Virus record (IMG/VR): IMGVR_UViG_3300042567_001420
Source: a virus
Taxonomy: Duplodnaviria > Caudoviricetes
DNA length: 64,000 nt
Reading direction: 5' to 3' (one strand)
The notes beneath the pieces were generated by a model. The model was not told the DNA's origin. It searched no databases and was given only the letters and a program-made list of their open reading frames with translations. Positions 2,192 through 29,304 of the stretch are shown in pieces (within the stretch, counting starts at the first letter, position 1; every line of letters starts with the position of its first letter). Position numbers and translations under genes: made by a program.

Positions 2192-2737
2192 TTAGCTATT
2201 TGGCAATATAGTGTTATCGTTAGCATCACCTTGCAATACACCTGTGGCATTAGCATTAAAGTTCTTTGAACTTGCTACTAATACTTCAACTTTGTTTCTT
2301 GTTGCGCCCTGAGTGGTAGTATATGTTTTATATGAAACCCAACCTGGTTGGCTAAACCCGTTTGCTTTATTACCAGCAACACCAACTTCAGTACGGTCAA
2401 CACCGTATACGTTGGCCTTATTGGTTGTGTTAGGACCACGACCAGAAGCCATTGTAGTGCCACGCCCATTTGTTGTAATCCATTTTGGATCTTCTTGAAT
2501 AGCAATATTGGCAGCTGCTACATTTGCGCCACGATATGCGGTATCAAGAATAATTGTAGTATTTGAACTAATAGTTTCAATTCTATAGTCCACGTTTGCA
2601 ATTACCAATGAATACCCCGCTTGAAAGCCATTCGCAGCAGTAACTGCAGCAGTGCTTGTAACAACTGTTGTGCTACCTAAATTAGCGCGTGCTGTTGCGC
2701 CAACTTCTCTTCTATCTAATTTTCCCCATGCTGACAT
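2192..2737 (-). CDS. Putative virion structural protein
   Basis: MSAWG start, PGWV and RNKVEVLVA motifs recalled from T4-like virion proteins; TATAAATA upstream. Confidence 0.55.
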   Translation of the reverse strand: MSAWGKLDRREVGATARANLGSTTVVTSTAAVTAANGFQAGYSLVIANVDYRIETISSNTTIILDTAYRGANVAAANIAIQEDPKWITTNGRGTTMASGRGPNTTNKANVYGVDRTEVGVAGNKANGFSQPGWVSYKTYTTTQGATRNKVEVLVASSKNFNANATGVLQGDANDNTILPNS

Positions 2738-2757: not shown

Positions 2758-2765
2758 TATTTATA
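2758..2765 (-). promoter_or_regulatory. T4-type late promoter TATAAATA
   Basis: Exact consensus upstream of 2737. Confidence 0.7.
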
Positions 2766-2784: not shown

Positions 2785-3882
2785 TTACTCTTTATCTTTT
2801 TTGGTTGTGCCTGGCATTGATTCCATGCGACGAACCGATCCATGGTGAATATATTTCTTACGTCCACCTTCCTTATCAGTCACAACATACTCAGCATAAG
2901 GTTGTCCGTTTTTAGTACTAAACTTATCGTTTGATACTGTGTTGCCCGCCTTGCGGTGAGCAGCTAACTTATCTTCAATTTCCATTCTGGTGAATGATTC
3001 AATAATCACATCTTCATAATTTTCTGCATATGCTTCTTCAGCAATAGCTACTATTTCCTGTTGAATAGATTCTTCATCTGTTCTAACAATAGATTGAACT
3101 GCTCTTAAGAAGTCACCATATGTAGGATTATCAGTAATTTCGATTGTAAAGTCATTATGCTTAACAATAGTTTCTGAAATTCCTTCTTCAACCGATTCTC
3201 TTTTAATACCTGCGGCATTAAGAGCAGCCGCTCTGTCGCCATAAGATTTAATATCAGGTGCAGCTTTTTTAATTGCTTTCTTAACTGTAGGCGATGCGCT
3301 GCTTTTGTTAACTTGCTTCATTGTAACAGTTCCAGCATTGCCCATAGTTCCTTCTTTAACTGCTTTTTGTTTTTTGCCTGCGCGAAGCATTTCAAAATCT
3401 TTAGCAGTTAATTTATCTTTCTCTGGCTCATGTACATCTAATACTTGTTGATTGGGGTGCAGTTTCTTTTCTTCAATTGATTCTGCATCTGCTTCAGCAT
3501 GTTCATGCATCTTGCCCTTTTTAACTTTAACTGCTTCTGTTTGTACTTTGCGAACACCGTCAGCAAATTGTACTGTGTACCAAGCAATATTGCCATTCTC
3601 ATCTGGGTCAGCATGTGCTTCTGAAATGCACTCGCCTTCGCCATACAAATCGTGTTCAACGTGTGTTGCACAGAAGTGAGCAGCATCTACTCTGCCTTCT
3701 TTGACAGTTGCAGTAATTTTATCTCTACGATTCTTTAAATAAGTATCGCTTTGATCAATTTTTTTATTGTTGTTGATGTCTGCGTCTTCTTTACCAACTG
3801 CATCCATTTTTGCTTCTTGAACTGGAGTTGGGTGTGTAATTTGTCTGATTGATTCAAACAATTCATTTGTAATTCTTGTCAT
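2785..3882 (-). CDS. Hypothetical protein, possible head-internal protein
   Basis: 365-aa ORF with many (I/V/L)xE sites. Confidence 0.6.
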   Translation of the reverse strand: MTRITNELFESIRQITHPTPVQEAKMDAVGKEDADINNNKKIDQSDTYLKNRRDKITATVKEGRVDAAHFCATHVEHDLYGEGECISEAHADPDENGNIAWYTVQFADGVRKVQTEAVKVKKGKMHEHAEADAESIEEKKLHPNQQVLDVHEPEKDKLTAKDFEMLRAGKKQKAVKEGTMGNAGTVTMKQVNKSSASPTVKKAIKKAAPDIKSYGDRAAALNAAGIKRESVEEGISETIVKHNDFTIEITDNPTYGDFLRAVQSIVRTDEESIQQEIVAIAEEAYAENYEDVIIESFTRMEIEDKLAAHRKAGNTVSNDKFSTKNGQPYAEYVVTDKEGGRKKYIHHGSVRRMESMPGTTKKDKE

Positions 3883-3929
3883 TCTAGGTCCTTTAATGAA
3901 TTCTATTTATTATTTATGGCTAACCGAAA

Positions 3930-4382
3930 TCATTTCTTTTTGCCAGCTAATCTTGATCGCTCTAAACTTCTAATCTTAGGAATCATTCTTACGACGAGTC
4001 CTTTTTGTCCTGCTAAAATATTAGATGCTTGTTTTTCAATTCTGTCTTTTTCAGCAGCAGATAATTGTTTTTTATCTCTGCCTTTTAAAAGTTTTCTAAT
4101 TACCATTTGTCTTGCAGCAACTTTTGATCTACGATTAATAACATCTGTAGATGATGCTCGTCTTAATTTTAATCTGCGAGCTTGTCCGACTGCCGTTTTT
4201 CTGGATTTAAATTTTTGCGATTTTTGCATTCTTGCTGTTGCAGAAAGAGCTTCATCTAATCCATTTTCAAATTCGTCATCTGCATATAGATGCTCGATGT
4301 CTTCCCATTGTAGTTCTTCCACAATAGAATCTAATTCTTCTTCCGTTATATCGGTACTTAAAAATTCTTGAAAAGTAATCAT
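3930..4382 (-). CDS. Hypothetical basic protein, possible head-internal protein
   Basis: Start MITFQEFL at 4382 overlaps the Dps stop (ATGA); acidic N-terminus, very basic C-terminal part. Confidence 0.6.
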   Translation of the reverse strand: MITFQEFLSTDITEEELDSIVEELQWEDIEHLYADDEFENGLDEALSATARMQKSQKFKSRKTAVGQARRLKLRRASSTDVINRRSKVAARQMVIRKLLKGRDKKQLSAAEKDRIEKQASNILAGQKGLVVRMIPKIRSLERSRLAGKKK

Positions 4383-4813
4383 TTTAGTGTTGCTTTTAGC
4401 ATCCAAGCATGTTTCTGATGAGCAGTAATTCTATCTTGCAAGAAATTTGCCAAACCTAATTCTGATGCATTGTCTGCATCTCTATAAGAAAGCATTAATG
4501 AAGCAAGTACCATGCTGTTTGTGTCCATTAAACTTTTAATCATTTGTAACGCTGGCATTACAGTTTCTTCTTCAGATACAACTGTAAGGTCTAGAAGTTG
4601 TTTTAATGATGTAGGTGTATATGCATCAATTTGTCGAATCTGTTCACCTAGCAAATCTATAGATCCATATACTTCTTCATAGATATCACCTAACAAATCG
4701 TGATACTGCGAAAAATCAGGTCCCTCTACATTCCAATGAAATGTATGAGCCTTGAAGTACATTGTAAACACATCTGCCAATGTCTTTTGTAAAGATAATT
4801 GCAACGATTCCAT
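4379..4813 (-). CDS. dps: Dps family ferritin-like protein
   Basis: KAHTFHWNVEG, HDLLGDIYEE, EQIRQI, HQKHAWML signatures. Confidence 0.9.
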   Translation of the reverse strand: MESLQLSLQKTLADVFTMYFKAHTFHWNVEGPDFSQYHDLLGDIYEEVYGSIDLLGEQIRQIDAYTPTSLKQLLDLTVVSEEETVMPALQMIKSLMDTNSMVLASLMLSYRDADNASELGLANFLQDRITAHQKHAWMLKATLK

Positions 4814-4814
4814 A

Positions 4815-6761
4815 TTATTCTGCCTGACTAGCTTTCTTCATCATTTTATATGCGGATGACTTTTGTCCTGCAATCTTTGCCTGTGCTGCATGGACTTCTT
4901 GTCTATCAGCATCATGATATGTCTTAAATGCTTGATTAGCGGGATCTTGTATAAAGGATTTAAATGATACCATTCCAACTGGTTTGTCTGGATGACCTTG
5001 ACCAGCAATGGGTTTATCTATGCCATGAAATACATCTTTGTTGTCTGTAAAGTTGACATCTCTCTCACTTGCTTCTTTGAGTTTCATTTTGTTTTCCTCA
5101 TCTTTATCTTTTTGACTCTGTCTAATTGAAGATAAAGTCTTTGGTTGTTCTTTAGTAGAAGTATCTATCATTTTAGCACGATGCTTAACGTATTTTACTT
5201 TGCCTGTTATTGGATCTTTGCTTGGAACATATTCAAAATCTGCAGACGCAACATCTTCTTCTACTCCCCTTGCACCAATAACTGTTACTGTTGAGCCTGG
5301 ATCATTTGCATATGTGCCATCTCTATGCATATTAAGGTCGGACATGGTTTTCAAATGTGTTTGCATATACAGTAAATCCTTATCTGCAACACCTAATACA
5401 TTCATTGTATCGTGTGCAATAGCAAACTTCATATTAAAGTCATGAATCATTTGATCATCCGCAAAGCCTTTGGCTTTTGCTTCCTTTTCAATTTCAAGAT
5501 ATTGATCTGTTGCCATAATTGCTTGCAGAACATATTTCTTTGGAAGTTGGACTCTGGTAATTAATTCTTTTAATTGAGCAGATGCACCTGGGCACGTATG
5601 AAGAAATGATGTGGTATAACCATCGAATGTAAGTTCCATTCTACTGTTGCTCATCTCAGCCAATTGTTCTTTGGATAGGAACAATGCAGGAATTTGTTTT
5701 CCTTCAACATAAGCAGGCTTATATGCGCCGTTGTATTTAATTTTTTCTTTTTCCTGAGGTCCGTCAGAAAATTTCTTGAAGTTTTGTAACTTCGAAGTCT
5801 TAGATAATTTGGGGCGTAGATCAACGTGTAGTCCTGTGCCTGCTTTTTCGCCAAATATTTCTTGTATATCTTTTAGCCAGTGTTTAGATGTATCGCCGCT
5901 TTTTTGTTGTATCGTAACGTATGAAGATCCTCTGTATACGATCTCGCCCCGTGTTCCGTTAGTTGATTCAACTATATCGCCTAATTTAAAAATCTCGCCT
6001 GCTATGTAAGACTCTCTTACTGGCACGCACATTCCTTTATCTTTGCTGAATACTTCACCAACGGGACAAACAATCTTCATTTCAGGAGTCATACCGATGG
6101 CATGGTCTGTGCCTTCTGGTGTGCCCCAATCAAATCTATTTGGATTTTCGTAATCTTCTTTAACCGCTTTGATGTGGTTGACAATTTCCTCCGCATGAGG
6201 ATGTAATGCCTTAGGAAGACCAGATTTAAATTGCTTCATTTCGCCTGCTCTGGCATGAGCACGCATCTTAGTTCCGGACATTCCCTCTACGCCTTCTGCG
6301 TCAGGGTCTCTTTGTCCTGCAGAAACTACTTTAATTGATTTAAAATTGTAGTGGCCGTGTTTACCGGCAACATTATTATACTTGTTTAATGTCTTGTGAT
6401 ACTCATCCACACGATCAGAACCAGCAACCATAACCAAATGTTTATATCCTTGACTATGTATTTTAGATGCAGCGTGAAGGAAAGTAGGAGATTCTTTAGA
6501 AGCACCTGATACTTTGGTGCCTTCTGGTGCCACGTGTTTTAGATATCCTACCTTGGCCTTGGCGGGAACAGGATCTTTTGATGTACCTTCAGAATGAGAT
6601 GCAACAATATGTGCAGTAGCATTGTGCTCATCCGCAACAGATTTGACTTTATTAATGAGTTTTTCGTGTCCAACGGTAGGCGGATTGAATCGCCCAAAGG
6701 CAAAAGCTGCTGTTTTTTCAGGCGCTTCTGTGATGAATTGTTTAAAGTCCATGTGGTCCAT
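4815..6761 (-). CDS. Cytidyltransferase-like (HIGH superfamily) nucleotidyltransferase with long C-terminal extension
   Basis: FGRFNPPTVGHEKL, VAGSDRV and MSGTKMR motifs in the first ~200 aa. Confidence 0.8.
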   Translation of the reverse strand: MDHMDFKQFITEAPEKTAAFAFGRFNPPTVGHEKLINKVKSVADEHNATAHIVASHSEGTSKDPVPAKAKVGYLKHVAPEGTKVSGASKESPTFLHAASKIHSQGYKHLVMVAGSDRVDEYHKTLNKYNNVAGKHGHYNFKSIKVVSAGQRDPDAEGVEGMSGTKMRAHARAGEMKQFKSGLPKALHPHAEEIVNHIKAVKEDYENPNRFDWGTPEGTDHAIGMTPEMKIVCPVGEVFSKDKGMCVPVRESYIAGEIFKLGDIVESTNGTRGEIVYRGSSYVTIQQKSGDTSKHWLKDIQEIFGEKAGTGLHVDLRPKLSKTSKLQNFKKFSDGPQEKEKIKYNGAYKPAYVEGKQIPALFLSKEQLAEMSNSRMELTFDGYTTSFLHTCPGASAQLKELITRVQLPKKYVLQAIMATDQYLEIEKEAKAKGFADDQMIHDFNMKFAIAHDTMNVLGVADKDLLYMQTHLKTMSDLNMHRDGTYANDPGSTVTVIGARGVEEDVASADFEYVPSKDPITGKVKYVKHRAKMIDTSTKEQPKTLSSIRQSQKDKDEENKMKLKEASERDVNFTDNKDVFHGIDKPIAGQGHPDKPVGMVSFKSFIQDPANQAFKTYHDADRQEVHAAQAKIAGQKSSAYKMMKKASQAE

Positions 6762-6781
6762 TAGAATATAGTTGATACTTA

Positions 6782-6880
6782 TTATTTATAAAATAAGGAT
6801 GTTTGGTTTATAGGAGGTATCGGATAAGGATGTTTTGGTTTAGGGGGATTTTTTTTAGGTTTGTGTTTGAACCAGCTCAT
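6782..6880 (-). CDS. Small Pro/Lys-rich protein (32 aa)
   Basis: MSWFKHKPKKNPPKPKHPYPIPPINQTSLFYK, GGAGG Shine-Dalgarno. Confidence 0.45.
   Translation of the reverse strand: MSWFKHKPKKNPPKPKHPYPIPPINQTSLFYK
6783..6790 (-). promoter_or_regulatory. T4-type late promoter TATAAATA
   Basis: Exact consensus upstream of 6761. Confidence 0.7.
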
Positions 6881-6973
6881 GTTGCCTCCGTTTTATCCAA
6901 AGTTAACCAAAAGTTATAGACAATCTATTGACATGATGTTATTATATGCTATGAGGCTCAGTGATAAGAAGCA

Positions 6974-7663
6974 TTAACAATTCCACTTTCTCAGTGCTTT
7001 GTTGATTCTTGAATCAGGGTCTCTAGCAGTCTCTGCAGATGTCAATCGCTTCTTCATTCCACCCATACGAGCACAAAAAGATTTTCTTCTATTAGCTGCT
7101 TTGCTTCCTGGCTTTAATTTAGATGGTTTAGTAGTTACGGCCATTTGTAACTTTGAACCGGGATTTTCTCTACGATATGAAGCAACACCCTTAGCATTTA
7201 ATCCGCCTTCAGGATTCTTACCCTCTTTGCGTTGCCAAGCAGCGACTTCAAATAGGTCTTCATCTGAAATATCTTTAAGGTCTTCCCAAATCACATCCGA
7301 ATCAACATTGTTTTCTTTTGCAATATCTTCGATCACATCTTCAATTAGATCAAACAGTTCTTCGGCTTCTTCAACTTTAACGCAATCATCTTTGCCGTTT
7401 GTTGTACCACTGTAACGATATCCATCCCAGCATGCTTTACCGTCGGCACCCTTGGCTTTGTCTTTTTTGGCTTCTGCCACGGTTTCTGACGCATTTTTAA
7501 AGTCTTGTTTGGATGGCGCGCCATCACTTCCAGGTGCACGCATACGTTCTCCGGATCCAGATTTGATTCGTTTGCGTTTTGCGTGAATGTTATCCCATAA
7601 CCCGGGACGATTGCCTTCGTCAATGGATTGAATTTCTTCTATTAGTTGTTTAAATGTTTTCAT
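6974..7663 (-). CDS. Hypothetical modular protein, possible head-internal protein
   Basis: MKTFKQLIEE start; GLWDNIHAKR, CWDGY and AWQRKEGKNPEGGLN modules. Confidence 0.7.
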   Translation of the reverse strand: MKTFKQLIEEIQSIDEGNRPGLWDNIHAKRKRIKSGSGERMRAPGSDGAPSKQDFKNASETVAEAKKDKAKGADGKACWDGYRYSGTTNGKDDCVKVEEAEELFDLIEDVIEDIAKENNVDSDVIWEDLKDISDEDLFEVAAWQRKEGKNPEGGLNAKGVASYRRENPGSKLQMAVTTKPSKLKPGSKAANRRKSFCARMGGMKKRLTSAETARDPDSRINKALRKWNC

Positions 7664-7669
7664 TTTAAT

Positions 7670-8104
7670 TTACTTTGTAGCTACATTAATTGCAGGACCT
7701 TTGCGTTCTGCATTAGGATCTTCTCTGCGTTTTCTTGCGGCGGCTTTGGCGCGCCCTTCTTTTCCCAAACTATGCGCTTGACTTTGCGGTAAACATTTTG
7801 GTTTACCTTCAGTATCATCTTCTCTCGCACAATCTCCTCGTATTTTACCATCAGGTCCAAAACGAACCCATTTGTCTTTAAACCATTTGTTTAAATTTTC
7901 ATCTACTTGTACGGTAGTATCTGCGATTGTATCTTCATTTTTACTAGAATTTCCCCAATTTGCCGCACCAACTTTGCGGCATTTAACTAACGCTCCGCTA
8001 GCATATGCCGAAGGCCAAACGCTATAGCGGCTTTTGACTTTATAATAGCAAGCATCTTTATTTTCATAAAGCAATTCTTCTCTTACTTGTTTAAATGTTT
8101 TCAT
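7670..8104 (-). CDS. Hypothetical protein, possible head-internal protein
   Basis: MKTFKQVREE start; WPSAYASG and KWFKDKW modules. Confidence 0.7.
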   Translation of the reverse strand: MKTFKQVREELLYENKDACYYKVKSRYSVWPSAYASGALVKCRKVGAANWGNSSKNEDTIADTTVQVDENLNKWFKDKWVRFGPDGKIRGDCAREDDTEGKPKCLPQSQAHSLGKEGRAKAAARKRREDPNAERKGPAINVATK

Positions 8105-9270
8105 CTTGGTCTCGCTGCAAAATTGGCTGCACTAAATTCTTCTCTATCTACTAGCTTTGTTGGTCTGTTGTTTAATACTGCAACATGACCTTCGGGTTTA
8201 ACTTTTTTACCATCAATGCTATGATGGAATTTATAATCCGCATTTGACATTGTTTGTACTAAAACATTTTTTGCATTTTGCAAATGTTTATGTATATCCA
8301 ACGTCTTTTTAAATGAATCTTTATTGGTATCAATATGATCCAACTTTTCATTCATATCCGCAGCTTTGTTTTGTTTGGCTTTATCGGTTTTAACTTTATC
8401 AATGCCTTTTTGCAGAGAACTTTGTAGATGTTTCTTATAGCCTTCTACCGATGGCTTTGAGGTGTCTCTCACAGTTGAATTAATATAAGTCTTTAATGAT
8501 TCATCGTGACCTTCGAGATGATCGTAATTGGGTAAATCATTGTGTGCTTCAACGGCCTTGGCCATGTGAGAATGATATTCTTGTTGAGCATCTGGGGTAT
8601 AATGTGCAGTCTTAGGATCAAATTTGGTATCAATTACATGAACATCTGGATGTGAATTAAATTTAGAAGTGTCAGTATTATATTCTGCCTTCATGTTCTC
8701 AAGTGTATCTCCGCGATATGCTGTGTGAACTGCTACACCAAATTTTGCATCTTTGATCTTTTGGCCTTCTTCACTGCCCTTTTTAGCAGAGTATGTAATT
8801 GTGTTAGGCTTAAAATGATAGGATCCGCCAGAATCGGATACATCTTTATCCGACTTATTATACATTACGTCACCTTGAAACACCCCTTCGTTAGGTGTTA
8901 CTTTAGGCAAGTGGTATAGCGCTGCTTTTAATTTGGCAACAAGTCCAGGTGAATGACCGTGGTTCTTTTCAATATCAGATTCTGTAAAATTTAATTTGGG
9001 ATTCTTGTTGAATGCAGATTTAGATGCAACAAAGAATCTAGGAAACTCCGGGTGAGTGCCAAACACAATACTAGGCGAGCCATCATACTTTGTGGATAAA
9101 GATACCTTTGATCTTTTGCCTAACAAAGCATTGTGTGTTTCGTTTAAAGTATTGAATACGTGCTTAAAGCCTTCTTCCCCTGCATTAATAGGGTGATCTT
9201 CTGCGTGTTCGAGGTGTGTTAACTTTTCCTCGTTCGCAGACTCAACTAAGTATGTGCTAAATGATAACAT
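8101..9270 (-). CDS. Ligase-fold (covalent nucleotidyltransferase-like) protein
   Basis: KYDG, FVASKS, FQGD, PEGHV and TKLV occur in the order of ligase motifs I, Ia, III, IV, V. Confidence 0.55.
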   Translation of the reverse strand: MLSFSTYLVESANEEKLTHLEHAEDHPINAGEEGFKHVFNTLNETHNALLGKRSKVSLSTKYDGSPSIVFGTHPEFPRFFVASKSAFNKNPKLNFTESDIEKNHGHSPGLVAKLKAALYHLPKVTPNEGVFQGDVMYNKSDKDVSDSGGSYHFKPNTITYSAKKGSEEGQKIKDAKFGVAVHTAYRGDTLENMKAEYNTDTSKFNSHPDVHVIDTKFDPKTAHYTPDAQQEYHSHMAKAVEAHNDLPNYDHLEGHDESLKTYINSTVRDTSKPSVEGYKKHLQSSLQKGIDKVKTDKAKQNKAADMNEKLDHIDTNKDSFKKTLDIHKHLQNAKNVLVQTMSNADYKFHHSIDGKKVKPEGHVAVLNNRPTKLVDREEFSAANFAARPR

Positions 9271-10670
9271 TAGAAACCACTCGCAGGTGTAAAATTATAC
9301 ATTTGGCTCGAATATGCCCCATGCGAATTTGGTTTTGTTGCTATTCGAACTAGCATCGTAGGCTTACCGTCTTTTTCAACCCTATGTATGGACACGGCTG
9401 ATCCAGATCGATGTATTACAAATCTTGTATCTTTATGTTTTAATATAGCACCCAGTGGCGACTCACTGCCATGTTTAACTACTGCATGGATTTTCTTAAG
9501 GTCTTTTCCGTGTCCGGTTGCTTTGATCCAAGTCATACCTTTATCTGATACTAAATTATTATGCAACCATTGTCCTATATGTTGATGGCCCTTTGCCCCC
9601 TTTGACATAAGGTGTTCTAATTGTTTTTGTAATTCACGCGCAGTTTCCTCATTATTTTCTTTAAAATCTACATTCATTTTTTTGCCAAGTGCATTAACTA
9701 CCGGTTTGCCTGTTTTAGGATCCGGATCGGTAACTCTAGCGTGTATAGAATCACCTGTTTTAGATCTAGCTGGCAAATGATCCATTTTAAATTTTTTAAG
9801 TATTTTTTCTTTACCTGCTTTGGCAATTTCGTTTGCTTCAGATTTTCGTGTTGCCGGCCCACCTGATAAAAATTCATCTTGTCCGGCAACTCCGGGATTT
9901 TTTGCTGTAATATTACCAGAAGTTTTACCGGTAGACTTTGCGGACACTCCTAAATAAGACTGTTCTACGTCTGAATGTGTTAACTCTAAAGTTACATCTG
10001 ATGGATTTTCTTGACCATCGGTATGAACGCCTTTTGTAAATCTACCAATATCCCCATCTTTGGATGTTCTACCCACACGAGTTATTGTTGCTCCAGGATG
10101 ATGTTCTTCCACATGCTTAATTACGGCAGCTGCCATTGCTTTACCGTGAGCTGCTCTTATTGCTACTTGATTTTGATCTTGGCCTTTAGTAATTTTATTT
10201 AATTCATCATCATGCTGTTTTAATTCTGTTTTATGTTCTTTCGAACCAAATGTTCCTGTTTGGGAATGTCTATGATTTACTAATTCTTTATATAAATGAA
10301 TCTCAGCAATTTTTCCTGCAGGATCATTATCTAGTTTAGTTGGAGGTTCTCCGCTACTAGGAGTCACCGTCTGCATTTTTTCTTGAATGAATTCTACAGA
10401 TTCATTCAGCTTATCTTGTTGAACTTCTTTTCCTGCATGCATTAATTCTTCTTTACTTAAATTAGAAGTATGCGGAAAGGCAACAATCTTTGTGATTGCG
10501 TCTAAACTTTTATTGTGAAATATTGCGGTTTTGTGTTCCCCGTTTCGAAAAATATGAACGTCTACATCATGTCCATCATCTGTGGAATAACTATGATACG
10601 GGGTTAGATTTGAGAAATCATGAGATTCGATAAGCGCACTATACGCCTTGAATGTGATTAATTCTTGCAT
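9270..10670 (-). CDS. Hypothetical protein with possible PD-(D/E)xK nuclease-like domain
   Basis: SDVTL...YLGVSAK spacing. Confidence 0.45.
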   Translation of the reverse strand: MQELITFKAYSALIESHDFSNLTPYHSYSTDDGHDVDVHIFRNGEHKTAIFHNKSLDAITKIVAFPHTSNLSKEELMHAGKEVQQDKLNESVEFIQEKMQTVTPSSGEPPTKLDNDPAGKIAEIHLYKELVNHRHSQTGTFGSKEHKTELKQHDDELNKITKGQDQNQVAIRAAHGKAMAAAVIKHVEEHHPGATITRVGRTSKDGDIGRFTKGVHTDGQENPSDVTLELTHSDVEQSYLGVSAKSTGKTSGNITAKNPGVAGQDEFLSGGPATRKSEANEIAKAGKEKILKKFKMDHLPARSKTGDSIHARVTDPDPKTGKPVVNALGKKMNVDFKENNEETARELQKQLEHLMSKGAKGHQHIGQWLHNNLVSDKGMTWIKATGHGKDLKKIHAVVKHGSESPLGAILKHKDTRFVIHRSGSAVSIHRVEKDGKPTMLVRIATKPNSHGAYSSQMYNFTPASGF

Positions 10671-10699
10671 TTTGAGTCCATTGAAACGAATTATACTTA

Positions 10700-10707
10700 T
10701 ATTTATA
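10700..10707 (-). promoter_or_regulatory. T4-type late promoter TATAAATA
   Basis: Exact consensus upstream of 10670. Confidence 0.7.
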
Positions 10708-10764: not shown

Positions 10765-11337
10765 TTAGATGTTAGTATTCCATGCTTTAATTACAGGATG
10801 CAGTACATCATCAGTATAATCCATCTTCATTGTGTTAACAATCGCCAGAATAATCTGAATATTGCCTTTGACATAACCCTTTTTAGAGTTAATACGATCT
10901 ACGCTAGGACGGAATGGGTTTCGATTGCCCTTTGTGCCCAGTTCCATACTAAAAGGAAGTTTGGTGATAGCACATTTACCTTCGCATGCGTCGAACTTGC
11001 TCTGAATATATTGCGGAGTAAGATTAAACGACATCTTACGACCTTTTTTCTCATGAGCAGCAACTCTATTCTTAAGAGCAACGTATTCAGTAATACCGAA
11101 TTTTTCAGGCGATGCTTTCTTTGCTCTATTCGCAATACGAGTTTTGACTCTAATTGCTGCTTTTTGCTCAGGAGTCAAGCTCTCTTTTTTCTTTTGATAA
11201 TCCCATTTACCAAATGCTGTAGCAATGGCATCCTCATCTGCAGTAAGTGGTCTGGCATCTAAACGTCTGATCTGATGTAGACGTTTTGCTTCTTTGCGAA
11301 CTTTGGGATCTTCAAAATTATACATAACCATCCACAT
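10765..11337 (-). CDS. HNH/His-Me-finger-like putative homing endonuclease
   Basis: CAITKLPF...PSVDRINSKKGYVKGNIQI...VNTMK. Confidence 0.65.
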   Translation of the reverse strand: MWMVMYNFEDPKVRKEAKRLHQIRRLDARPLTADEDAIATAFGKWDYQKKKESLTPEQKAAIRVKTRIANRAKKASPEKFGITEYVALKNRVAAHEKKGRKMSFNLTPQYIQSKFDACEGKCAITKLPFSMELGTKGNRNPFRPSVDRINSKKGYVKGNIQIILAIVNTMKMDYTDDVLHPVIKAWNTNI

Positions 11338-12060: not shown

Positions 12061-12282
12061 TTAGCCTTTTTGTGGCTTCTTGACCTTGTTCAAATATTCT
12101 CTACCAATAAAACCCTGCTCAACTTCATTCAAAGCAGTTACAATTGGCTTATGATGTTTTGCATCAATTTTTGGTGCATATCCTTTGCGCAATTCTCTGG
12201 CGCGAGCTGATGCAATTAGCACCAGATCATACCGATTACCTACCATGTTAACTGCATCTTCTGATGTGATTTGATTTGACAT
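12061..12282 (-). CDS. rpoZ: RNA polymerase omega subunit homologue
   Basis: ITSEDAV...NRYDLVLIASARAREL..G...KP.V.AL.E. Confidence 0.85.
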   Translation of the reverse strand: MSNQITSEDAVNMVGNRYDLVLIASARARELRKGYAPKIDAKHHKPIVTALNEVEQGFIGREYLNKVKKPQKG

Positions 12283-12837: not shown

Positions 12838-13617
12838 TTACAATATTACTTCATTTGTTTTGCGCATATCTGCACAAGTATACTCCTGATAACTTGCCTT
12901 TAAAATTTCTGGCATCGGAATAATTTCAATCTCCGCATGATATTCTTCTGCAACCATATCCGCAACATCATAAAAACTCATAGTTTTACCTGTGCCCATA
13001 TTAAAGATTCCAGATCTACTTGATTCTAAAAACTTTAAATGATAATCCACAATAGATTTCACATGAACAAAATCTCTACGATAATTTTCACTATTCTCAA
13101 ATAATTTAATCTTACCTGTTTCTATGGCTTGTTTCTTAAACTGAGCAAATGGGCTTGCCTGATTGCCTTTATGTTCTTCACCTTCCCAAGCCCATACATT
13201 AAAATATCTAAATCCTTGCACAATGGGACTATCATGATGATGTTGTTTTACATATCTTTCAAACAAATACTTTGACCAAGCATAAGGCGTTCTTGGATCC
13301 AACGGAGAATTTTCGCAAAACTCTTTATTCAATCCATACACACTTGCAGAACTAGAATACTGTAAATTAACTCCGAATGTTTTACACTCATCGTATAAAT
13401 CCATGGAGAATTCGTAATTTTGTCTTAGTACTTTATCAATATCTTTTTCGGTTGTTGAACTAATAGCACCAGCATGAATAACCCATTCAAAATCCATAAC
13501 ACCTGGTCTCGGACCATCATCATATTCATACGTTGCAACATCATCACCTCGATCGCGCAAGGCCGTCAATAGTCTAGAACCAATAAATCCTCTATGACCT
13601 GTTAGCAATATTTTCAT
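12838..13617 (-). CDS. hldD: ADP-L-glycero-D-manno-heptose 6-epimerase-like SDR
   Basis: TGHRGFIG, YSSSASVYG, YAWSK, RYFNVW, RDFVHV, YQEYTCAD. Confidence 0.75.
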   Translation of the reverse strand: MKILLTGHRGFIGSRLLTALRDRGDDVATYEYDDGPRPGVMDFEWVIHAGAISSTTEKDIDKVLRQNYEFSMDLYDECKTFGVNLQYSSSASVYGLNKEFCENSPLDPRTPYAWSKYLFERYVKQHHHDSPIVQGFRYFNVWAWEGEEHKGNQASPFAQFKKQAIETGKIKLFENSENYRRDFVHVKSIVDYHLKFLESSRSGIFNMGTGKTMSFYDVADMVAEEYHAEIEIIPMPEILKASYQEYTCADMRKTNEVIL

Positions 13618-13906
13618 TGTAATATACCTCGCTGTTTACCGCTTTATCATCGATCCAAATATCGTATGCGGGTTTACCTAATTTTAATGTTGTATACTTA
13701 ACTTGCCAGTTGGCAAATTGTTGTCTTGTAAGAGTTGTCCAATCAATACCAGAGTTACCACCTCTTGCTGTCCAATAATGAATCTCATTTCCCGCATCAA
13801 ACAGTTTATTAAAATGTGCAATTCGATCCGCAAAAGGTTGAGCACTATGATAATCACCTACAGTATTACTACAAATTGTGCCATCAATATCTACAAGGTA
13901 TTTCAT
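13592..13906 (-). CDS. Small HAD-superfamily phosphatase
   Basis: VDIDGTI, TARG, GKP...IDDK. Confidence 0.8.
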   Translation of the reverse strand: MKYLVDIDGTICSNTVGDYHSAQPFADRIAHFNKLFDAGNEIHYWTARGGNSGIDWTTLTRQQFANWQVKYTTLKLGKPAYDIWIDDKAVNSEVYYNENIANRS

Positions 13907-14259
13907 GTCTGACTATCTCCAGGTGCAACTCTATAATTATCTTCTACCGAATCAGGTGTACTAACTTCAATGATAGTACCTTCTTCCTGACAAACCAATT
14001 GATGCGGTAAACATGGAGGATTGTGCCAAGTATCGCCCGATTTAAGATACTTAATTTGTTCTTTGGCTGTTTTGGTATCAATCCATTTGACAAAGAATAA
14101 CCCGTCAAGTACATACCATGATTCATCTTTTTCAGAATGAAAGTGCATACTAAATTTTGCACCAGAGTTGAACTTCATCAACTTGCCGCAATATTTATCG
14201 TTAGTAGCCCAGATTAATTCGTGACCCCAACCTTTTTTAACAAAACCCTCAAGCCTCAT
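13903..14259 (-). CDS. Cupin (sugar-phosphate isomerase-like) protein
   Basis: KKGWGHE, SMHFHSEKDESW, PHQL, EVSTPD. Confidence 0.75.
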   Translation of the reverse strand: MRLEGFVKKGWGHELIWATNDKYCGKLMKFNSGAKFSMHFHSEKDESWYVLDGLFFVKWIDTKTAKEQIKYLKSGDTWHNPPCLPHQLVCQEEGTIIEVSTPDSVEDNYRVAPGDSQT

Positions 14260-15035
14260 TTTATTTCCTTTAGTGTAGGTGCATAATTGCCAACATGCTG
14301 TACTGTAATTGACGATGCTTTATTTGCAAATCTGATTGCATCTTCAATACTATTCGTCACCAGATATTGATAAGCTAAGGCGGCTAAGAATGTATCACCT
14401 GCCCCACACGCATCAAGAACATCAACTTTTTTGGTTGCGTAATTTGTGTTGACATACTCACTCCGTAACATTGCACCATTGGCACCCAACGTCACAATCA
14501 TATCCCATGCATACGACTCAGCCGCTTCAAATTCTTTTTCGTTGATTTTAACGTAAGCACCATTAAACGCTTCTAAGTTTCTTTTCTTCGTATCGATAAA
14601 AACTGGCCCATTAAAATTGTGAATCAGATTTTGAATGTGTTCGTAAGTTAAAAAGCCTTTATTGTAATCAGACACAACAACAGCATCATAACCTTCCGTA
14701 TCTACAATTCCATCCCATGGCTCTATCTTTGGCTCATCATCTATTCTAACAATTTGATATCCAGATTTTTCGTCTATGATTCTAGTCTTTGTGATCCTAG
14801 GTTCACCATTAATGCCAGCAGACGGATTTGAAATTATGGTTGTGTTACACCCAAGTTTATGCAGATTGCTATGGACATTTCGTGCCATACCAAGTCTGGT
14901 TTCTTTTCGTGTTAGTTTGATTATGGGAATTGGGGCTTCTGGACTCAATCTATCGATTGTTCCATATTGATAAACATCTATGCAAGAATCACCGAGCAAT
15001 AATATTTTGAATTGTTTTTGTTGTTGAATATCCAT
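14256..15035 (-). CDS. PfkB family kinase, HldE/RfaE domain I-like (heptose-7-phosphate kinase)
   Basis: LLGDSCIDVY, RLSPEAPIP, SDYNKG, DACGAGDTF. Confidence 0.8.
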   Translation of the reverse strand: MDIQQQKQFKILLLGDSCIDVYQYGTIDRLSPEAPIPIIKLTRKETRLGMARNVHSNLHKLGCNTTIISNPSAGINGEPRITKTRIIDEKSGYQIVRIDDEPKIEPWDGIVDTEGYDAVVVSDYNKGFLTYEHIQNLIHNFNGPVFIDTKKRNLEAFNGAYVKINEKEFEAAESYAWDMIVTLGANGAMLRSEYVNTNYATKKVDVLDACGAGDTFLAALAYQYLVTNSIEDAIRFANKASSITVQHVGNYAPTLKEIK

Positions 15036-15384
15036 TTACCAAATCCACAAATCTAATCTCTTTACAATATTGACTTCCCACAATAGGCTTATCTTTATAA
15101 TCACTACCCTTAACCATTATAGGGGAATACTGTTTACAAAGCATTTCTAATTCTTTAGCTGAATCAAATATATGAACAGCACTAACTGCTCTTAAATTTT
15201 GTAACAGATGTTTTCTATCATCTTGATTATTAATAGGTCTACTATTGCCTTTTAATTCTTTAACTCGTCTATCCGAATCAATACAGACTATAAGTTGTTG
15301 ACCACAACCTCTGGCATAATTAAGTAATTCGATATGTCCTCTATGGACAATATCAAAGGTGCCGTTGACAAGAATATTAATCAT
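14989..15384 (-). CDS. Heptose-1-phosphate adenylyltransferase-like, HldE/RfaE domain II
   Basis: NGTFDIVHRGH, KGNSRPIN, VKGSDY, GYSTT. Confidence 0.85.
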   Translation of the reverse strand: MINILVNGTFDIVHRGHIELLNYARGCGQQLIVCIDSDRRVKELKGNSRPINNQDDRKHLLQNLRAVSAVHIFDSAKELEMLCKQYSPIMVKGSDYKDKPIVGSQYCKEIRFVDLVNGYSTTKTIQNIIAR

Positions 15385-23549: not shown

Positions 23550-24962
23550 TTATAACTTTATAGATGAGAAATCTCTAGACCGTTTATTAAACGCATCTCC
23601 TATATTATAATTGCTTTTTTGTGGTTTGTCAACTCTATCGATATCCAAATTGGCATCTGTTAGTCCTTTTTGAGCAGACTGTTCCAAATCATATAATTTC
23701 ATCTTAGATCTATCAACACCAATCATAAATCGTTTATTAGCTGTCGGGTCATTATATCGATTCTTCAATTGCTTAACCATAATCTGATTTGTTTGTTCAA
23801 GTTCCTCAGTCGAAATCAAAGCAAACATAAAGTCAACTGTTGCAGGCAAACCAAAAGATTCAGATGTATCTGTTAGTTCAACATCTGTATTTCCATACCC
23901 ACTTCGAGTTGTCTGTGTAGCTGATAGAATCGGAAGATCTTCTTCAACCGCCAAACCACGAAGTTCTTCTGCAATAGACTTAATCAAAGTATAAGAATTA
24001 ATATTTGAACCAGATTTGAATCTTGAACTCGAACAAATATTCAAGTAGTCAATAATAATCATTGCAGGTTTAAATTGTTTCTTTAGTTGCAATTCATTTA
24101 ACAAAGCCTTAAAGTGTCCAGTATGTGCGCCAGCAGTAGGATATTCTTTAATGATTAATCTGCCTTCAGTCTTGTTTCTAATCTTTTCAATTCGATTGTC
24201 AAATATAGACTTCGGCAAATCTTTCAATTGATCCAAAGTAATATTCATTAAGTTCGCATCAATACGTTCCGCAATTCTTTCTTCAGCCATCTCAAGAGTA
24301 ATATACAAAACATTCTTACCTTGAGCCAAAGTCGATGCTGCTACGTGACACATGAACAAAGACTTACCAACACCTGTACCTGCAAGAACAACATTCAATG
24401 TCTTATTAGGCAACCCGCCATTTGTGATCTTGTTAAAATACTCAAGATCAAAGGGTGTTCTTGATTCTACCCTATGATAAAATTCATATCGACTATCTGC
24501 ATTCTCAATATAATCATGTCCAACATTGTTGTCAAAACAAACACCAAGTGCATCCTGCAATAATTGAGGAATACCATCTTGAGTCTTGGCCGCATCTCTA
24601 CCATCAATGATTGCAATTGAATTTAAAATTGCGTTATAAATTGCTTTGTCTTTACAGAACTTTTCAGTCTCTTTGTAGAGCCAATCTTTATTGTGTTCTG
24701 TAGGGTTTAGCTCTTGAATGATACCTGCAACTTCTTTGTACTGTTCTTCATTTAAAGTTTTATCATTTTGAAGTGCAACAATCAAAGCATCTTTGTTCGG
24801 AGGTGTATTATACTCATCTATAAACGCTTTGACTCTATCAAAAATTAATCGATCACTATTTTCTAAAAAATAATCCCGCTTTAAGAAAGGGATTACTTTT
24901 CTCATATACGCATCATCTGTTACCAGGTTTTGCAGAATCACCTGTTCGATTTTCGAATTCAT
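23550..24962 (-). CDS. 41: Replicative DNA helicase (T4 gp41)
   Basis: LAGTGVGKS, YITLEMAE, IIIDYLNI, SATQTTRSG, QLKNRY. Confidence 0.95.
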   Translation of the reverse strand: MNSKIEQVILQNLVTDDAYMRKVIPFLKRDYFLENSDRLIFDRVKAFIDEYNTPPNKDALIVALQNDKTLNEEQYKEVAGIIQELNPTEHNKDWLYKETEKFCKDKAIYNAILNSIAIIDGRDAAKTQDGIPQLLQDALGVCFDNNVGHDYIENADSRYEFYHRVESRTPFDLEYFNKITNGGLPNKTLNVVLAGTGVGKSLFMCHVAASTLAQGKNVLYITLEMAEERIAERIDANLMNITLDQLKDLPKSIFDNRIEKIRNKTEGRLIIKEYPTAGAHTGHFKALLNELQLKKQFKPAMIIIDYLNICSSSRFKSGSNINSYTLIKSIAEELRGLAVEEDLPILSATQTTRSGYGNTDVELTDTSESFGLPATVDFMFALISTEELEQTNQIMVKQLKNRYNDPTANKRFMIGVDRSKMKLYDLEQSAQKGLTDANLDIDRVDKPQKSNYNIGDAFNKRSRDFSSIKL

Positions 24963-26343: not shown

Positions 26344-26784
26344 TTAGTTGCACCAACTTTGTTTGGCATCTCCGTAATATTCACGGGCGAATCCGTTTTT
26401 AATTAATTCTGCTCTTAGGCTTACACCGTTTAGAATTAGATCACCTAAAACACGTCCACCGAATTTATCCCAACCATATAACATGACTTGATGTTTTTGT
26501 GTGGAATTTATTGCATTTTTGGTAAACACACTAGCAGCTTCTCCGCGTTGTTTTTCCAAATCGCATTGTCCTCTAAATCCCTTTTCGGGAGTATCTACTC
26601 CAAATACTCGAACGGCAATTTCTGGTTTGATGGGTGCAGGCAAATACGGTGCAGCAATAACTACAGTATCTCCGTCTGTCACTCTTATAATGTTAGCATC
26701 ATATAATACTCCTTTTGGAGTCTTTTGAGCATAACTTGTAGATGCACATAATAGAAATGCAAGTGTTAATAATAATTTTTTCAT
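26344..26784 (-). CDS. Thermonuclease (SNase-like) with signal peptide
   Basis: RVTDGDT, VRVFGVDTPE, DKFGGRVLG; MKKLLLTLAFLLCASTSYA. Confidence 0.85.
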   Translation of the reverse strand: MKKLLLTLAFLLCASTSYAQKTPKGVLYDANIIRVTDGDTVVIAAPYLPAPIKPEIAVRVFGVDTPEKGFRGQCDLEKQRGEAASVFTKNAINSTQKHQVMLYGWDKFGGRVLGDLILNGVSLRAELIKNGFAREYYGDAKQSWCN

Positions 26785-29270
26785 GCGAATAATCCTTCCA
26801 ATGTTGCTTGTGGCTTTGCAGACCAACCCACACCATTCAATATTGTTGTTAACGGTTCAAGAAATGATTTCTCAAACATTGTGTCATAATCTACATACTG
26901 CTTCAAATTGAACTCTTCAGGAATCACATTGATAAAAGCAATACAATTTTCTTTAATCAAGTTTGGTTCTTTTAAGTAAATGAATTTGATCTTATCGCCT
27001 TCACTTATAAGTTCATACTTTTTATCTATTTGCTTTTCTTTTAAATAGAAGTTATACAGCAAGGCTCCCCGAACGTGCATTGGAGTAGCTGGTTTATAAA
27101 TAGATGATCTATCTGTATATTTATCGACTCCATTTACACCTCTAGGGAATGCGATTAATTCTGGTTCTAATTTACGATACTTAGTTTCAAACTCTCGAAT
27201 GTAATCTTGTAGCTCTTGTTCTGTTCCGGTCAATGCCAATTTAACTGCCTGCTTCAACGCGTCTCGTACAGGTTCGGGAGTAGATGATCTAACAATCTCC
27301 AATCCCATAACCTTTAGCTTTGGTTCCTTATATTGAACACCCTCATTGTTATAAACATTTAAAGCATATCGTTTCTTAGCAACCCAAATGCCTCGATCTG
27401 CAATAACCTCACGCTTAAAATAAATCTTTGTCTCAAAGGCATTAGTATATTCTGCAAGCATATCGCATGACTTGTTAATTGCCTTTTCAATCTTCTCATT
27501 ACAAATCTTATCGAGAATCTCTACGATCTTTTCTTTTGGTTGATCTTTGTAGAACTTTTGAACCAATGGGTCAAGTGTAATATAACACGCATCTGTATCT
27601 GAATAGAATGAATAAATGTGATCTTTTGTGTCACACACTTTGTTCAAATACTCATTCAATGCTGCACCCACAGTCTGAATAATATACTGTCCGGTCAACG
27701 TAATACCTTCAGCAATATTTGAATCATAGAATCTAAAAAACTCATTGCCCCATGCACCAAACAAAGAGTTTAATTGAATCTTACGAGCCATCTGAAAGTT
27801 GTTATATTTTGCAATCTCTTTTTGCCACTTCTTATCTTTTGATTCTTCATACTTAGATTGAGCGACCAACATCAACTTCTTATACTTTTGTCGATCGTCA
27901 AATAACTTCTGAACAATCTCGGGAAACAATCCTTGCTTCTCTCTGGTATAGCAAAAGCCATTTGCAGACATACAATAGTTGTTATCTTTTAGATCATCTA
28001 GATTGATAGATTGTTTTAACAATGAATTTACATCTGCATTTTTTGTTGCTTTTCTAATTTGTGTTTCTGGCGACAAATTATACTGCATAATAATACTAGG
28101 ATACAGACTTGTTGCATCAAAAGAAACCACCCAATCATATTTGCCTGGTCGTGGTTCTTGAACAAATGCCCCGACAATTTGTCTACCGGGCAAACCTTCT
28201 CGCTGATGCACAACAATGTTTTGTTTCCACAAATGATTCCATAAGATACAGTCCCAAGTTCTTACAGCTGAGAATACATCAACATAATTACATTTCGCAT
28301 CATATGCCATTGTAAGAATCAATTCAATCAACTTCATCTTGTCTTCAAGCTGGTCAACAAGTTCTACGTCAACTACGTTATACTCGACAAACTTTTGCCA
28401 ATCATTTTTATAGAAGTCTCGGAACGAAGTATATTCGTCATACGATAATTTCTCTTTGCCAAGTTCTACTTTGGCAATGTGATCCAACTTATATGATTCT
28501 TGAGCACTGTAGGTAAACTTCTTATACAGATCAAGATAGTCTAGAATGGCTACACCAAGAATATCATAAATAAGTTCTGTGCGACTCATGCGGGTAAATT
28601 CTTTTGGATTTACCACACCCCAAGGTGATAGCTTTTTAACAGCATCATCTCCAAGAATACGTGCCATTCTAGAACACAAATATGGAATATCAAAGAATTC
28701 AATGTTCCATCCTGTAAGAATGTTAGGGCAATTCTCTTGGAAATAAATTAAGAACTTCTGAAATAGATCATACTCATCTCTACATTGAATATAGGTATGA
28801 TTGTCTTTTGTTACTTTAAATTGTTTCGATCCAAATGTCACAAGCTCTTTAGTACTTGCATCTTGAATCGTAATCAATAACAATTCTTCTTTTGGATCTC
28901 TGACATTGGGGAATCCAAGTTCTGCAGAGGTCTCAATATCAAGAGACCAAATTTTAATCTGCGAAATATCGAATTCTACTTCGTCGGGAAACGTCTTTGT
29001 GATATACTGATATGCGTAATTTGTGTTGCCAAAGATGGGATAATTTTCTACTTCTTTATATCTTTTGACATAATCTTTGGCATCGTTTATATCTGCGAAT
29101 TCTATTTCTTCAAGATTATCTCCGAATAACGACTTATAGTATGATTCTTTCTGTGACTTTGTAAATAAGCTTGGTTTGAATTCGATCTTTTCCTGAACGG
29201 TTTTGCCGTTATTTACGCCCCTGACCAGAATACGATTACCATACTGATTCACGTTAGTGTAGAACTTCAT
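26781..29270 (-). CDS. 43: Family B DNA polymerase (T4 gp43)
   Basis: DIET exonuclease motif, FDATSLYPS, KIQLNSLFG, YSDTD. Confidence 0.97.
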   Translation of the reverse strand: MKFYTNVNQYGNRILVRGVNNGKTVQEKIEFKPSLFTKSQKESYYKSLFGDNLEEIEFADINDAKDYVKRYKEVENYPIFGNTNYAYQYITKTFPDEVEFDISQIKIWSLDIETSAELGFPNVRDPKEELLLITIQDASTKELVTFGSKQFKVTKDNHTYIQCRDEYDLFQKFLIYFQENCPNILTGWNIEFFDIPYLCSRMARILGDDAVKKLSPWGVVNPKEFTRMSRTELIYDILGVAILDYLDLYKKFTYSAQESYKLDHIAKVELGKEKLSYDEYTSFRDFYKNDWQKFVEYNVVDVELVDQLEDKMKLIELILTMAYDAKCNYVDVFSAVRTWDCILWNHLWKQNIVVHQREGLPGRQIVGAFVQEPRPGKYDWVVSFDATSLYPSIIMQYNLSPETQIRKATKNADVNSLLKQSINLDDLKDNNYCMSANGFCYTREKQGLFPEIVQKLFDDRQKYKKLMLVAQSKYEESKDKKWQKEIAKYNNFQMARKIQLNSLFGAWGNEFFRFYDSNIAEGITLTGQYIIQTVGAALNEYLNKVCDTKDHIYSFYSDTDACYITLDPLVQKFYKDQPKEKIVEILDKICNEKIEKAINKSCDMLAEYTNAFETKIYFKREVIADRGIWVAKKRYALNVYNNEGVQYKEPKLKVMGLEIVRSSTPEPVRDALKQAVKLALTGTEQELQDYIREFETKYRKLEPELIAFPRGVNGVDKYTDRSSIYKPATPMHVRGALLYNFYLKEKQIDKKYELISEGDKIKFIYLKEPNLIKENCIAFINVIPEEFNLKQYVDYDTMFEKSFLEPLTTILNGVGWSAKPQATLEGLFA

Positions 29271-29304
29271 TAAAAACCTTTTAGACACAATAAATAATTA
29301 TATC

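Follow-up and report, generated by a model that had tools for sequence, protein, structure and literature searches.

Why should neighbouring genes of a T4-like phage that belong to different protein families all begin with the same short N-terminal motif? This question is raised by positions 2785-10707 of a 64,000-nucleotide (nt) stretch of viral DNA (IMG/VR record IMGVR_UViG_3300042567_001420), which we refer to in its full length as the window. The window belongs to the genome of a T4-like aquatic myophage, as yet uncultured, and carries the genes for the gp43 DNA polymerase (26781-29288), UvsX and the gp41 helicase (23550-24962) in their usual order; a near-identity DNA search returned no near-identical match to the locus among GenBank phages. 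Downstream of the replication genes lies a series of closely packed genes on the minus strand, six of which, between 3930 and 10670, start with the motif in question. We consider it likely that these genes form an internal-protein locus of the T4 type, whose enzyme-containing cargo would be directed by a capsid targeting sequence (CTS) and processed by a protease, and that such loci are widespread in aquatic T4-like phages. Since the leaders correspond to the head-packaging tag of the T4 internal proteins (IPs), the tagged proteins probably travel inside the virion and are delivered along with the DNA.

An earlier examination of the bare letters (hereafter the sequence-only reading) had listed six N-termini with a shared motif, and all of them were recovered on the minus strand, two after a correction of the start codon. 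They belong to a 466-amino-acid (aa) protein (9270-10670; leader MQELITFKAYSALIE, nt 10626-10670), a 389-aa DUF6267 protein (8101-9270; MLSFSTYLVE, nt 9241-9270), a 144-aa basic protein of two modules (7670-8104; MKTFKQVREE, nt 8075-8104), a 229-aa basic modular protein (6974-7663; MKTFKQLIEE, nt 7634-7663), a 648-aa nucleotidyltransferase-type protein (4815-6761; MDFKQFITE, nt 6726-6752) and a 151-aa basic protein (3930-4385; MITFQEFLSTDITE, nt 4344-4385). The start-codon corrections concern the latter two. The open reading frame (ORF) 4815-6761 begins MDHMDFKQFITE as called, and its true start is likely Met4 (nt 6752), whereas the 158-aa ORF 3930-4406 probably starts at Met8 (nt 4385), giving MITFQEFLSTDITE; both corrections are supported by the orthologues in the 95%-identical relative L006, where the former protein begins MDFKQF. 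A 151-aa ORF antisense to the 151-aa cargo gene (3916-4371, plus strand) is favoured by a simple longest-ORF caller, and we rejected it as an artefact because orthologues keep the minus-strand frame. A seventh gene (2785-3882, minus strand), encoding a 365-aa modular acidic/basic protein, carries a variant of the leader that looks like the short propeptide of T4 Alt: its start, MTRITNELFE (nt 3853-3882), is close to MELITELFDE of Alt, and its positional homologues begin MRTLVE↓T, MRNLVE↓A or MYRTVE↓N (here and below, the arrow follows the glutamate of a known or presumed cleavage site).

Within the T4 CTS, residues 4 and 7 serve targeting, and residues 8 and 10 serve processing and cleavage (review PMC9026906). 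Leaders of the MKTYQEFIAE type, which the sequence-only reading had named for T4 internal proteins, are indeed found in the T4 record, where IPII and IPIII both begin with this very sequence and the ipII and ipIII genes are identical over 30 of 30 nt. The six leaders of the window, 9-15 residues in length and located at the extreme N-termini, align with MKTYQEFIAE at Met1, a small or polar residue at position 3, Phe4, a hydrophobic residue at position 7 (L, V, Y or F), I or L at position 8 (once R) and Glu10. Phe4 and the hydrophobic residue 7 are in register in MKTFKQLIEE, MKTFKQVREE, MLSFSTYLVE and MITFQEFL, and are displaced by -1 in MDFKQFITE and by +3 in MQELITFKAY... The leaders end in LIE, LVE, IEE, ITE or LFE, the exception being VREE. 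The MITFQEFLSTDITE leader has 5 of 10 positions in common with T4 MKTYQEFIAE, plus F for Y and L for I, and the two MKTFKQ genes share 18 identical nt, as had been noticed before, with 27 of the first 30 nt alike. When all 90 ORFs of the window were scanned with a regular expression for the leader, four matched, all of them in the cluster, compared with a rate of 0.33% in shuffled N-termini. Chance as the source of the leaders is excluded.

The leader is just as selective among relatives. Homologues of the DUF6267 protein are present in 466 GenBank phage records, including cyanomyophages, the Pelagibacter phage HTVC008M and the Methylophilales phage Melnitz, and in IMG/VR contigs there are a further 476; 80 IMG/VR loci with flanks, comprising 1233 ORFs, were used for the comparison. 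The motif matched 113 of 189 orthologues as against 27 of 1044 other ORFs (Fisher p = 2e-81), with about 4 matches in 1233 expected by chance. The matching orthologues were distributed over DUF6267 (72/81), the nucleotidyltransferase (29/80), the 229-aa family (9/24) and the 144-aa family (3/4). Most of the 27 remaining matches are further small genes within 6 kb and on the same strand (e.g. MKTFFMLREE, MLKFKEFIAE, MKSFKSYIAE, MNEFKSFLEE), and the locus therefore presents itself as a variable collection of tagged genes. In the same 80 loci no leader was found on gp41 (0/34), gp43 (0/13) or a Dps-like gene (0/32), and two matches among 19 UvsX sequences were judged to be chance. The glutamate of the leader is invariant, both as E15 in the alignment of the 466-aa protein (34 homologues) and as E10 in that of DUF6267 (25 sequences); leader nucleotides differ among orthologues, the pattern being kept at the amino-acid level. 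At the DNA level, a strict leader pattern gave four matches in five near-complete or complete relatives, three of which are DUF6267 starts, and a loose, admittedly crude pattern gave 21 matches vs 9 in the reversed control, the real-looking ones being cluster genes and a few singletons. Outside the locus, leader-like N-termini were noted on the HhaI-type DNA methylase of Melnitz (MZ577098 4010-5227; MKYFRYTLDE) and on ORF G002:40495 (MISFKVFIIE), which may be further cargo or chance matches.

Several features suggest that the leader is an addition to the proteins rather than a part of their folds. In AlphaFold2 (AF2) models it is disordered (residues 1-13 of DUF6267 and 1-17 of the 466-aa protein) and lies outside the predicted folds, and in the nucleotidyltransferase alignment it forms a clean N-terminal extension. 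Besides, its presence depends on gene arrangement: the leader is missing from nucleotidyltransferases whose gene overlaps DUF6267 or directly adjoins it (0/18), whereas it is present in 29 of 36 cases in which other genes lie between the two (p = 5e-9, uncorrected for phylogeny, with roughly 4-6 lineages per side). In S-PM2 both proteins are fused in frame. As far as the sequences tell, there is one tag per polypeptide, that is, the leader tracks the polypeptide and not the family. In the same phage, an apparent frameshift splits DUF6267 into two ORFs (p138/p139; L001:5983-7762), the C-terminal half being the one fused in frame with the cytidyltransferase, so that the 'cytidyltransferase' annotation includes half a ligase-like protein.

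The leader is also related to the presumed processing enzyme. A gp21-type (Peptidase_S77) prohead protease is encoded by all four near-complete relatives (4/4; E 1e-33 to 2e-43), and these gp21 homologues themselves begin MKLITEITQELQYITE↓A and similar, which is the same motif as in the cargo leaders. T4 cut sites of like pattern are GSFLTE↓AE in gp23, QLIAE↓A in gp22 and GLIE↓A in gp67. The sequence-only reading had further pointed to many internal (I/L/V)xE sites between modules. This was borne out for the junctions, which are the only places where such sites are conserved and where they coincide with gene fission or fusion points; it did not hold as a general excess, and individual proteins exceeded their own shuffles only in the case of the 229-aa (z=4.3) and 365-aa (z=2.0) products. 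The 648-aa protein, of which approximately residues 400-648 form a separate ORF in relatives, has the junction AQLKE↓LI in the window, and an internal leader-like SFKSFIQD at aa 599. The two modules of the 144-aa protein are joined at QVDE↓NL, and residues 66-144 exist in relatives as an ORF of their own starting MILE↓D or MVLE↓N. Modules of the 229-aa protein are fused otherwise in relatives, with a conserved xxE before the GLWDNIHAKRKR module and an xxE before GLWDNIH at the point of fission or fusion, while the 365-aa protein has a conserved (I/V)xE 2-3 residues ahead of its LHPNQQ module and the junction SIEE↓KK. Finally, the 151-aa module is in relatives fused downstream of another module, with a leader-like ...KQESVVASFANFIAE↓KKE at the junction.

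As to the time of expression, both T4-type late promoters proposed by the sequence-only reading are exact TATAAATA boxes on the minus strand, one before the first cargo gene (10700-10707) and one (6783-6790) in the 212-nt gap before the nucleotidyltransferase gene; a third exact box (2758-2765, minus strand) belongs to the 181-aa gene 2192-2737. Boxes of the form CATAAATA/AATAAATA lie upstream of the 365-aa gene. Of 60 related loci, 58 have an exact TATAAATA no more than 1.75 kb ahead of DUF6267, and no such box was found in related loci before gp43, UvsX or gp41. These late-type promoter boxes suggest late expression of the locus. The 212-nt gap (6762-6973) also holds the near-repeats AAACCAAAACATCCTTATCC and AAACCAAACATCCTTATTTT (coding strand) just upstream of its late box.

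Together with what is established for T4, this evidence leads us to the following model. The cargo genes would be transcribed from the late promoters, and each independently translated product would bear an N-terminal tag of about ten residues, M-x-(T/S)-(F/L)-x-x-(F/Y/L)-(I/L)-x-E, as the counterpart of the T4 CTS. The tag would bring the protein into the scaffolding core of the prohead, where a gp21-type protease would cut it off after Glu and probably also cleave the conserved (I/L/V)xE sites at module junctions. The mature pieces would then remain in the head with the DNA and exit with it at infection, as do the T4 IPs and Alt. We thus infer packaging, cleavage in this phage, injection and a role of the enzymes in the next host, of which injection and counter-defence are extrapolated from T4. 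The cargo set would comprise DUF6267, a HIGH nucleotidyltransferase with extra modules, a HinP1I/MspI-like nuclease-fold protein and small basic modules (DUF5872, DUF6321 and others). The mechanism would be the known one of T4; new are the cargo, its make-up of modular polyproteins and its wide occurrence.

The identity of the cargo matters for what the proteins might do. The sequence-only reading had named a ligase-like enzyme, a nucleotidyltransferase, a nuclease-like protein and small basic modules; the first stood up well, the second at the level of the superfamily, the third is weak but consistent, and the small modules are basic as claimed. Good evidence from conserved residues and a predicted structure supports the 389-aa DUF6267 protein (Pfam E 5e-97) as a putative RNA-ligase-like adenylyltransferase. 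Invariant in 25 sequences are K61-x-D63-G64 (the KxDG of motif I), Q132-x-D134 (FQGD), P359-E360-G361-x-V363 (PEGHV) and T371-K372 (TKLV), and ligase motifs III, IV and V are present in order. The AF2 model (predicted local distance difference test, pLDDT, 90.9) aligned in VIA-align with NgrRnl (Z 9.2; 5cot, 185 aa, root-mean-square deviation 3.9), TbREL1 (Z 8.3; 1xdn), Trl1 (7.6), T4 Rnl2 (7.3) and T4 Rnl1 (7.0), and scored lower with DNA ligases (Z 6-6.7); ligases were likewise the top Foldseek matches in the PDB, although weak ones (E 0.03-0.5). The model contains, at about aa 226-342, a long insertion made up of helices; it shows no recognisable OB domain. Since DUF6267 is the only Pfam family to which the protein belongs, with no match to any curated ligase family, NCBIfam model or PDB sequence, we speak of a ligase-like fold and not of a member of a named ligase family.

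The 648-aa protein has, at about aa 17-205, an N-terminal domain for which there is good sequence evidence of a HIGH-motif nucleotidyltransferase, a call confined to the superfamily: it matches PF01467 (22.4 bits vs a cut-off of 21), contains FGRFNPPTVGH and resembles phrog_3041 (E 1e-59) and phrog_395 (E 1e-51), both annotated 'cytidyltransferase', whereas the NCBIfam NMNAT and cyt_tran models remained below their cut-offs. Further modules follow downstream of this domain. In some relatives (L056:11209-12801, L060:11188-13152, L065, L074) a leaderless nucleotidyltransferase is fused at about residue 205 to a P-loop kinase-like GGPGSGKDY domain, and in HTVC008M the corresponding place (L002:7724-8386) is occupied by a stand-alone P-loop protein; this architecture fits either NadR-like NAD salvage or Pnk-like RNA repair. 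The 466-aa protein, which matched no Pfam or PHROG family, appears to have a restriction-endonuclease-like core. Its 34 homologues share the invariant pattern GDIGRF...QENPSD225-x17-S243-x-K245, with D225 and S243-x-K245 falling within, or next to, two strands predicted in succession (226-231 and 238-246); these residues may be equivalent to HinP1I SDx18QxK or MspI TDx17NxK. Its AF2 model (pLDDT 81.7) gave one-sided structural matches, all of them to PD-(D/E)XK nucleases, namely MspI (Z 6.3), HinP1I (Z 5.8), the Dna2 nuclease domain and a Cas4-like protein (5.3) and Hjc (4.5), each below the advised Z of 8, as well as a weak Foldseek match in the PDB to HinP1I (E 0.016). This points, weakly but consistently, to a candidate of the HinP1I/MspI-like nuclease fold. 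PDB sequence searches with DUF6267, the 466-aa protein and the nucleotidyltransferase domain gave no match. Among the basic proteins, the 144-aa product (20.8% lysine plus arginine, K+R) shows weak similarity to DUF5872 and to phrog_727, and the 229-aa product has a C-terminal DUF6321 (E 2.6e-19). Inside the operon there is also a 144-aa Dps/ferritin-like protein (4379-4813, minus strand; PF00210 E 3.9e-19, phrog_3636), which has no leader, remained below the cut-offs of the Dps equivalog models and is kept at the same position in 32 of the related loci.

It is tempting to go one step further and to view the region as a hypervariable 'address-tag' locus, in which any gene that gains the ten-residue leader would become head cargo, while fused or coupled partners would make do with one tag. 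The core of the cargo, i.e. the ligase-like protein and the HIGH nucleotidyltransferase (kinase-fused in some relatives), could then be an injected kit for RNA repair or NAD restoration that acts before phage gene expression, and the nuclease-fold protein could attack unmodified host DNA at time zero. Taken as a whole, this extended proposal is conceivable, and we put it forward only tentatively. Conversely, the proteins might be packaged via the tag and serve nothing but the virion itself, the basic modules neutralising or organising DNA, the ligase-like and Dps-like proteins keeping it intact and the nuclease-fold protein contributing to DNA processing, without any counter-defence kit. The K+R content of the small modules (20-22%, as in T4 IPs) would suit such a task, the locus adjoins virion structural genes, the data indicate no host defence target, and a Dps-like gene for DNA protection is conserved within the operon; that Dps-like protein, however, is the one without a leader. 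Likewise, the best folds for DUF6267 are RNA and not DNA ligases, the locus is hypervariable among relatives, a trait seen more often in genes for host interaction than in housekeeping components of the virion, and the best-studied T4 cargo, IPI* and Alt, acts after injection. We therefore regard a role confined to the virion as unlikely.

Whether homologues of the cargo reach the virion can be read from published cyanophage proteomes. Purified S-SM1 virions yielded 25 peptide counts for the T4-GC190 'cytidyltransferase', as compared to 18 for the portal protein and 8 for gp21, and 12, 10 and 7 counts for GC1453, GC1454 and GC1455, respectively (Sullivan et al. 2010, PMC3037559, Table S8). We located the detected genes as the consecutive SSM1_188, 190, 191 and 192, at the same locus as the cargo of the window. 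SSM1_190 (T4-GC190) is the orthologue of the 648-aa protein (34% identity over 290 aa, E 1e-48) and begins MKKFSAFLNE, and SSM1_192 begins MLSFKELQE. In S-CREM2 virions, ORF154 (cytidylyltransferase), ORF155 and ORF156 were detected (PMC10665884). Both papers report the detections, and in neither are they linked to a CTS-type leader or to protease processing. The 365-aa protein was considered as a homologue of S-SM1 GC1454 and rejected: with a non-significant BLASTP value (E 3.1) and only the short KxDxVGxED...YLKNRR motif in common, we do not claim homology.

A number of observations weigh against a CTS-directed, processed cargo. The S-CREM2 authors remark that such detections are frequent and that abundant non-structural proteins may co-purify (PMC10665884). 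Syn9 gp184 carries the leader MKKFSAFLSE and went undetected in the older, shallower Syn9 virion proteome, and S-SM1 GC1453 and GC1454 lack a canonical leader and were detected nonetheless, so the tag is proven neither necessary nor sufficient. For the same proteins, the attempt to use S-SM1, S-PM2 and Syn9 as a natural experiment, in which presence of the leader should equal detection in the virion, failed. Many cyanophages (S-PM2, P-HM2, P-RSM6, S-SM1, Syn9) have a DUF6267 protein without leader. In the window itself, MKTFKQVREE has an Arg at position 8 (VREE), the gp21 gene is not within the 64 kb, and (I/L/V)xE sites show no general excess in the cargo (1.88 vs 1.47 per 100 aa elsewhere in the window; 1.17 vs 1.15 for [IL]xE). 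A further weakness is the complex prediction for a coupled DUF6267 and its leaderless nucleotidyltransferase (L013), whose score of 0.00 speaks neither way on the idea that the latter travels 'piggy-back'. Co-purification, the undetected gp184 and the detected leaderless neighbours in S-SM1 could be taken to mean that the leader does not target the head at all and is instead a translation-initiation context, a degradation signal or a docking helix of cytoplasmic late proteins. This is very unlikely in our view: the leader is conserved at the amino-acid and not the nucleotide level, fits the mapped positions of the T4 CTS, recurs on the prohead protease of relatives, resembles the cut sites of T4 head proteins, and is found internally at fusion junctions, where an initiation context would be needless; besides, the virion detections comprise four consecutive locus genes in S-SM1 and three in S-CREM2. 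That the leaders are alike merely as a functionless remnant of a recent duplication or gene conversion of 5' ends, as the 18 identical nt of the two MKTFKQ genes might suggest, is hardly credible and already contradicted by the conservation data, since the motif occurs on at least ten unrelated families, persists with different codons in orthologues of 53-65% identity, has an invariant Glu and tracks gene adjacency.

With head targeting as the preferred reading, the locus can be set beside known systems. It has in common with T4 IPI, IPII and IPIII the leader of about ten residues ending in (I/L)-x-E (MKTYQEFIAE as compared with MKTFKQLIEE, MITFQEFL... and MLSFSTYLVE), the late promoter, small basic cargo, paralogous genes with near-identical 5' ends and a gp21-type protease (here in relatives). 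Unlike in T4, the locus lies between gp41 and structural genes and not at the ip loci, several presumed cargo proteins are large enzymes or multi-module polyproteins, and the mature cargo matched no family annotated as T4 IP in Pfam and PHROG searches, which involved no direct comparison with the T4 IPs themselves. T4 Alt, a packaged and gp21-cut ADP-ribosyltransferase, provides the precedent for an enzyme that enters the head by means of a short cleaved propeptide, to which the start of the 365-aa protein bears the likeness described above; the enzymes of the window are instead ligase-like, a HIGH nucleotidyltransferase and a nuclease-fold protein, and no ADP-ribosyltransferase domain was seen in Pfam and PHROG scans. 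The propeptides of giant phages are long and diverse and are cleaved after (S/A/G)-x-E, whereas the tag of the window is a short T4-type leader. The ejection proteins of the giant phages phiKZ and SPN3US nevertheless offer a parallel, a T4 gp21-related protease cutting at xxE-type sites in a large number of proteins inside the head, enzymes among them (PMC5694885, PMC7411985). The virion 'cytidyltransferase' of cyanophages (T4-GC190; SSM1_190, S-CREM2 ORF154) is an orthologous nucleotidyltransferase at the same locus. Lastly, RNA ligases (the Rnl5-type NgrRnl of Naegleria, T. brucei REL1, T4 Rnl2 and Rnl1) share with DUF6267 the invariant KxDG, the later motifs and the adenylyltransferase fold (Z 9.2-7.0, 164-194 residues aligned); they differ from it in that no sequence match to solved ligases was obtained and in the long insertion and the OB domain mentioned above.

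The T4 CTS has so far been regarded as a trait of the T-even coliphages and put to use in engineering. Among the papers of the searched library in which the term 'capsid targeting sequence' occurs, screened by title and abstract, a T4 review is the only one that names cyanophages as well, and in the literature we found no prior description of DUF6267, DUF6321, DUF5872 or a CTS in cyanophages. If our reading is true, the abundant T4-like phages of marine and fresh waters, among them those infecting cyanobacteria, SAR11 and methylophiles, would deliver enzymes with their DNA, which would explain the recurrent 'cytidyltransferase' in cyanophage virion proteomes and give DUF6267, DUF6321 and DUF5872 a cellular address. 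It would also allow injected proteins to be predicted in phage genomes from metagenomes by a simple rule at the sequence level, and provide candidates for roles against RNA-cleaving, NAD-depleting or restriction-type defences.

The surroundings of the locus deserve a brief description. On the side of the structural genes, the 181-aa protein (2192-2737, minus strand; MSxWG...) belongs to a virion-protein family (phrog_613, 'head protein'), its positional homologues being S-SM1 SSM1_195 (T4-GC425, 17 virion peptide counts) and Syn9 gp188 ('head protein'). On the opposite side, immediately upstream of the cargo genes, an HNH/endonuclease VII-like gene (10765-11337; phrog_3322) is shared with no contigs but the near-identical L003 and L006 and is probably a mobile homing endonuclease at the border of the locus. 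In L006, two added paralogous genes of about 141 aa (MRSLHESIAGMLLG... and MSTLYESIAGILLG...) are placed between this HNH gene and the first cargo gene (L006:7613-8504) and the 144-aa gene is absent, so that the locus is variable even among near-identical phages. Farther upstream, the window contains a small RpoZ-like ORF (12061-12282; MSNQITSED...) and a run of sugar-nucleotide genes (12838-15384), including epimerase-like and cytidylyltransferase-like (MINILVNGTFDIVHRGH) genes.

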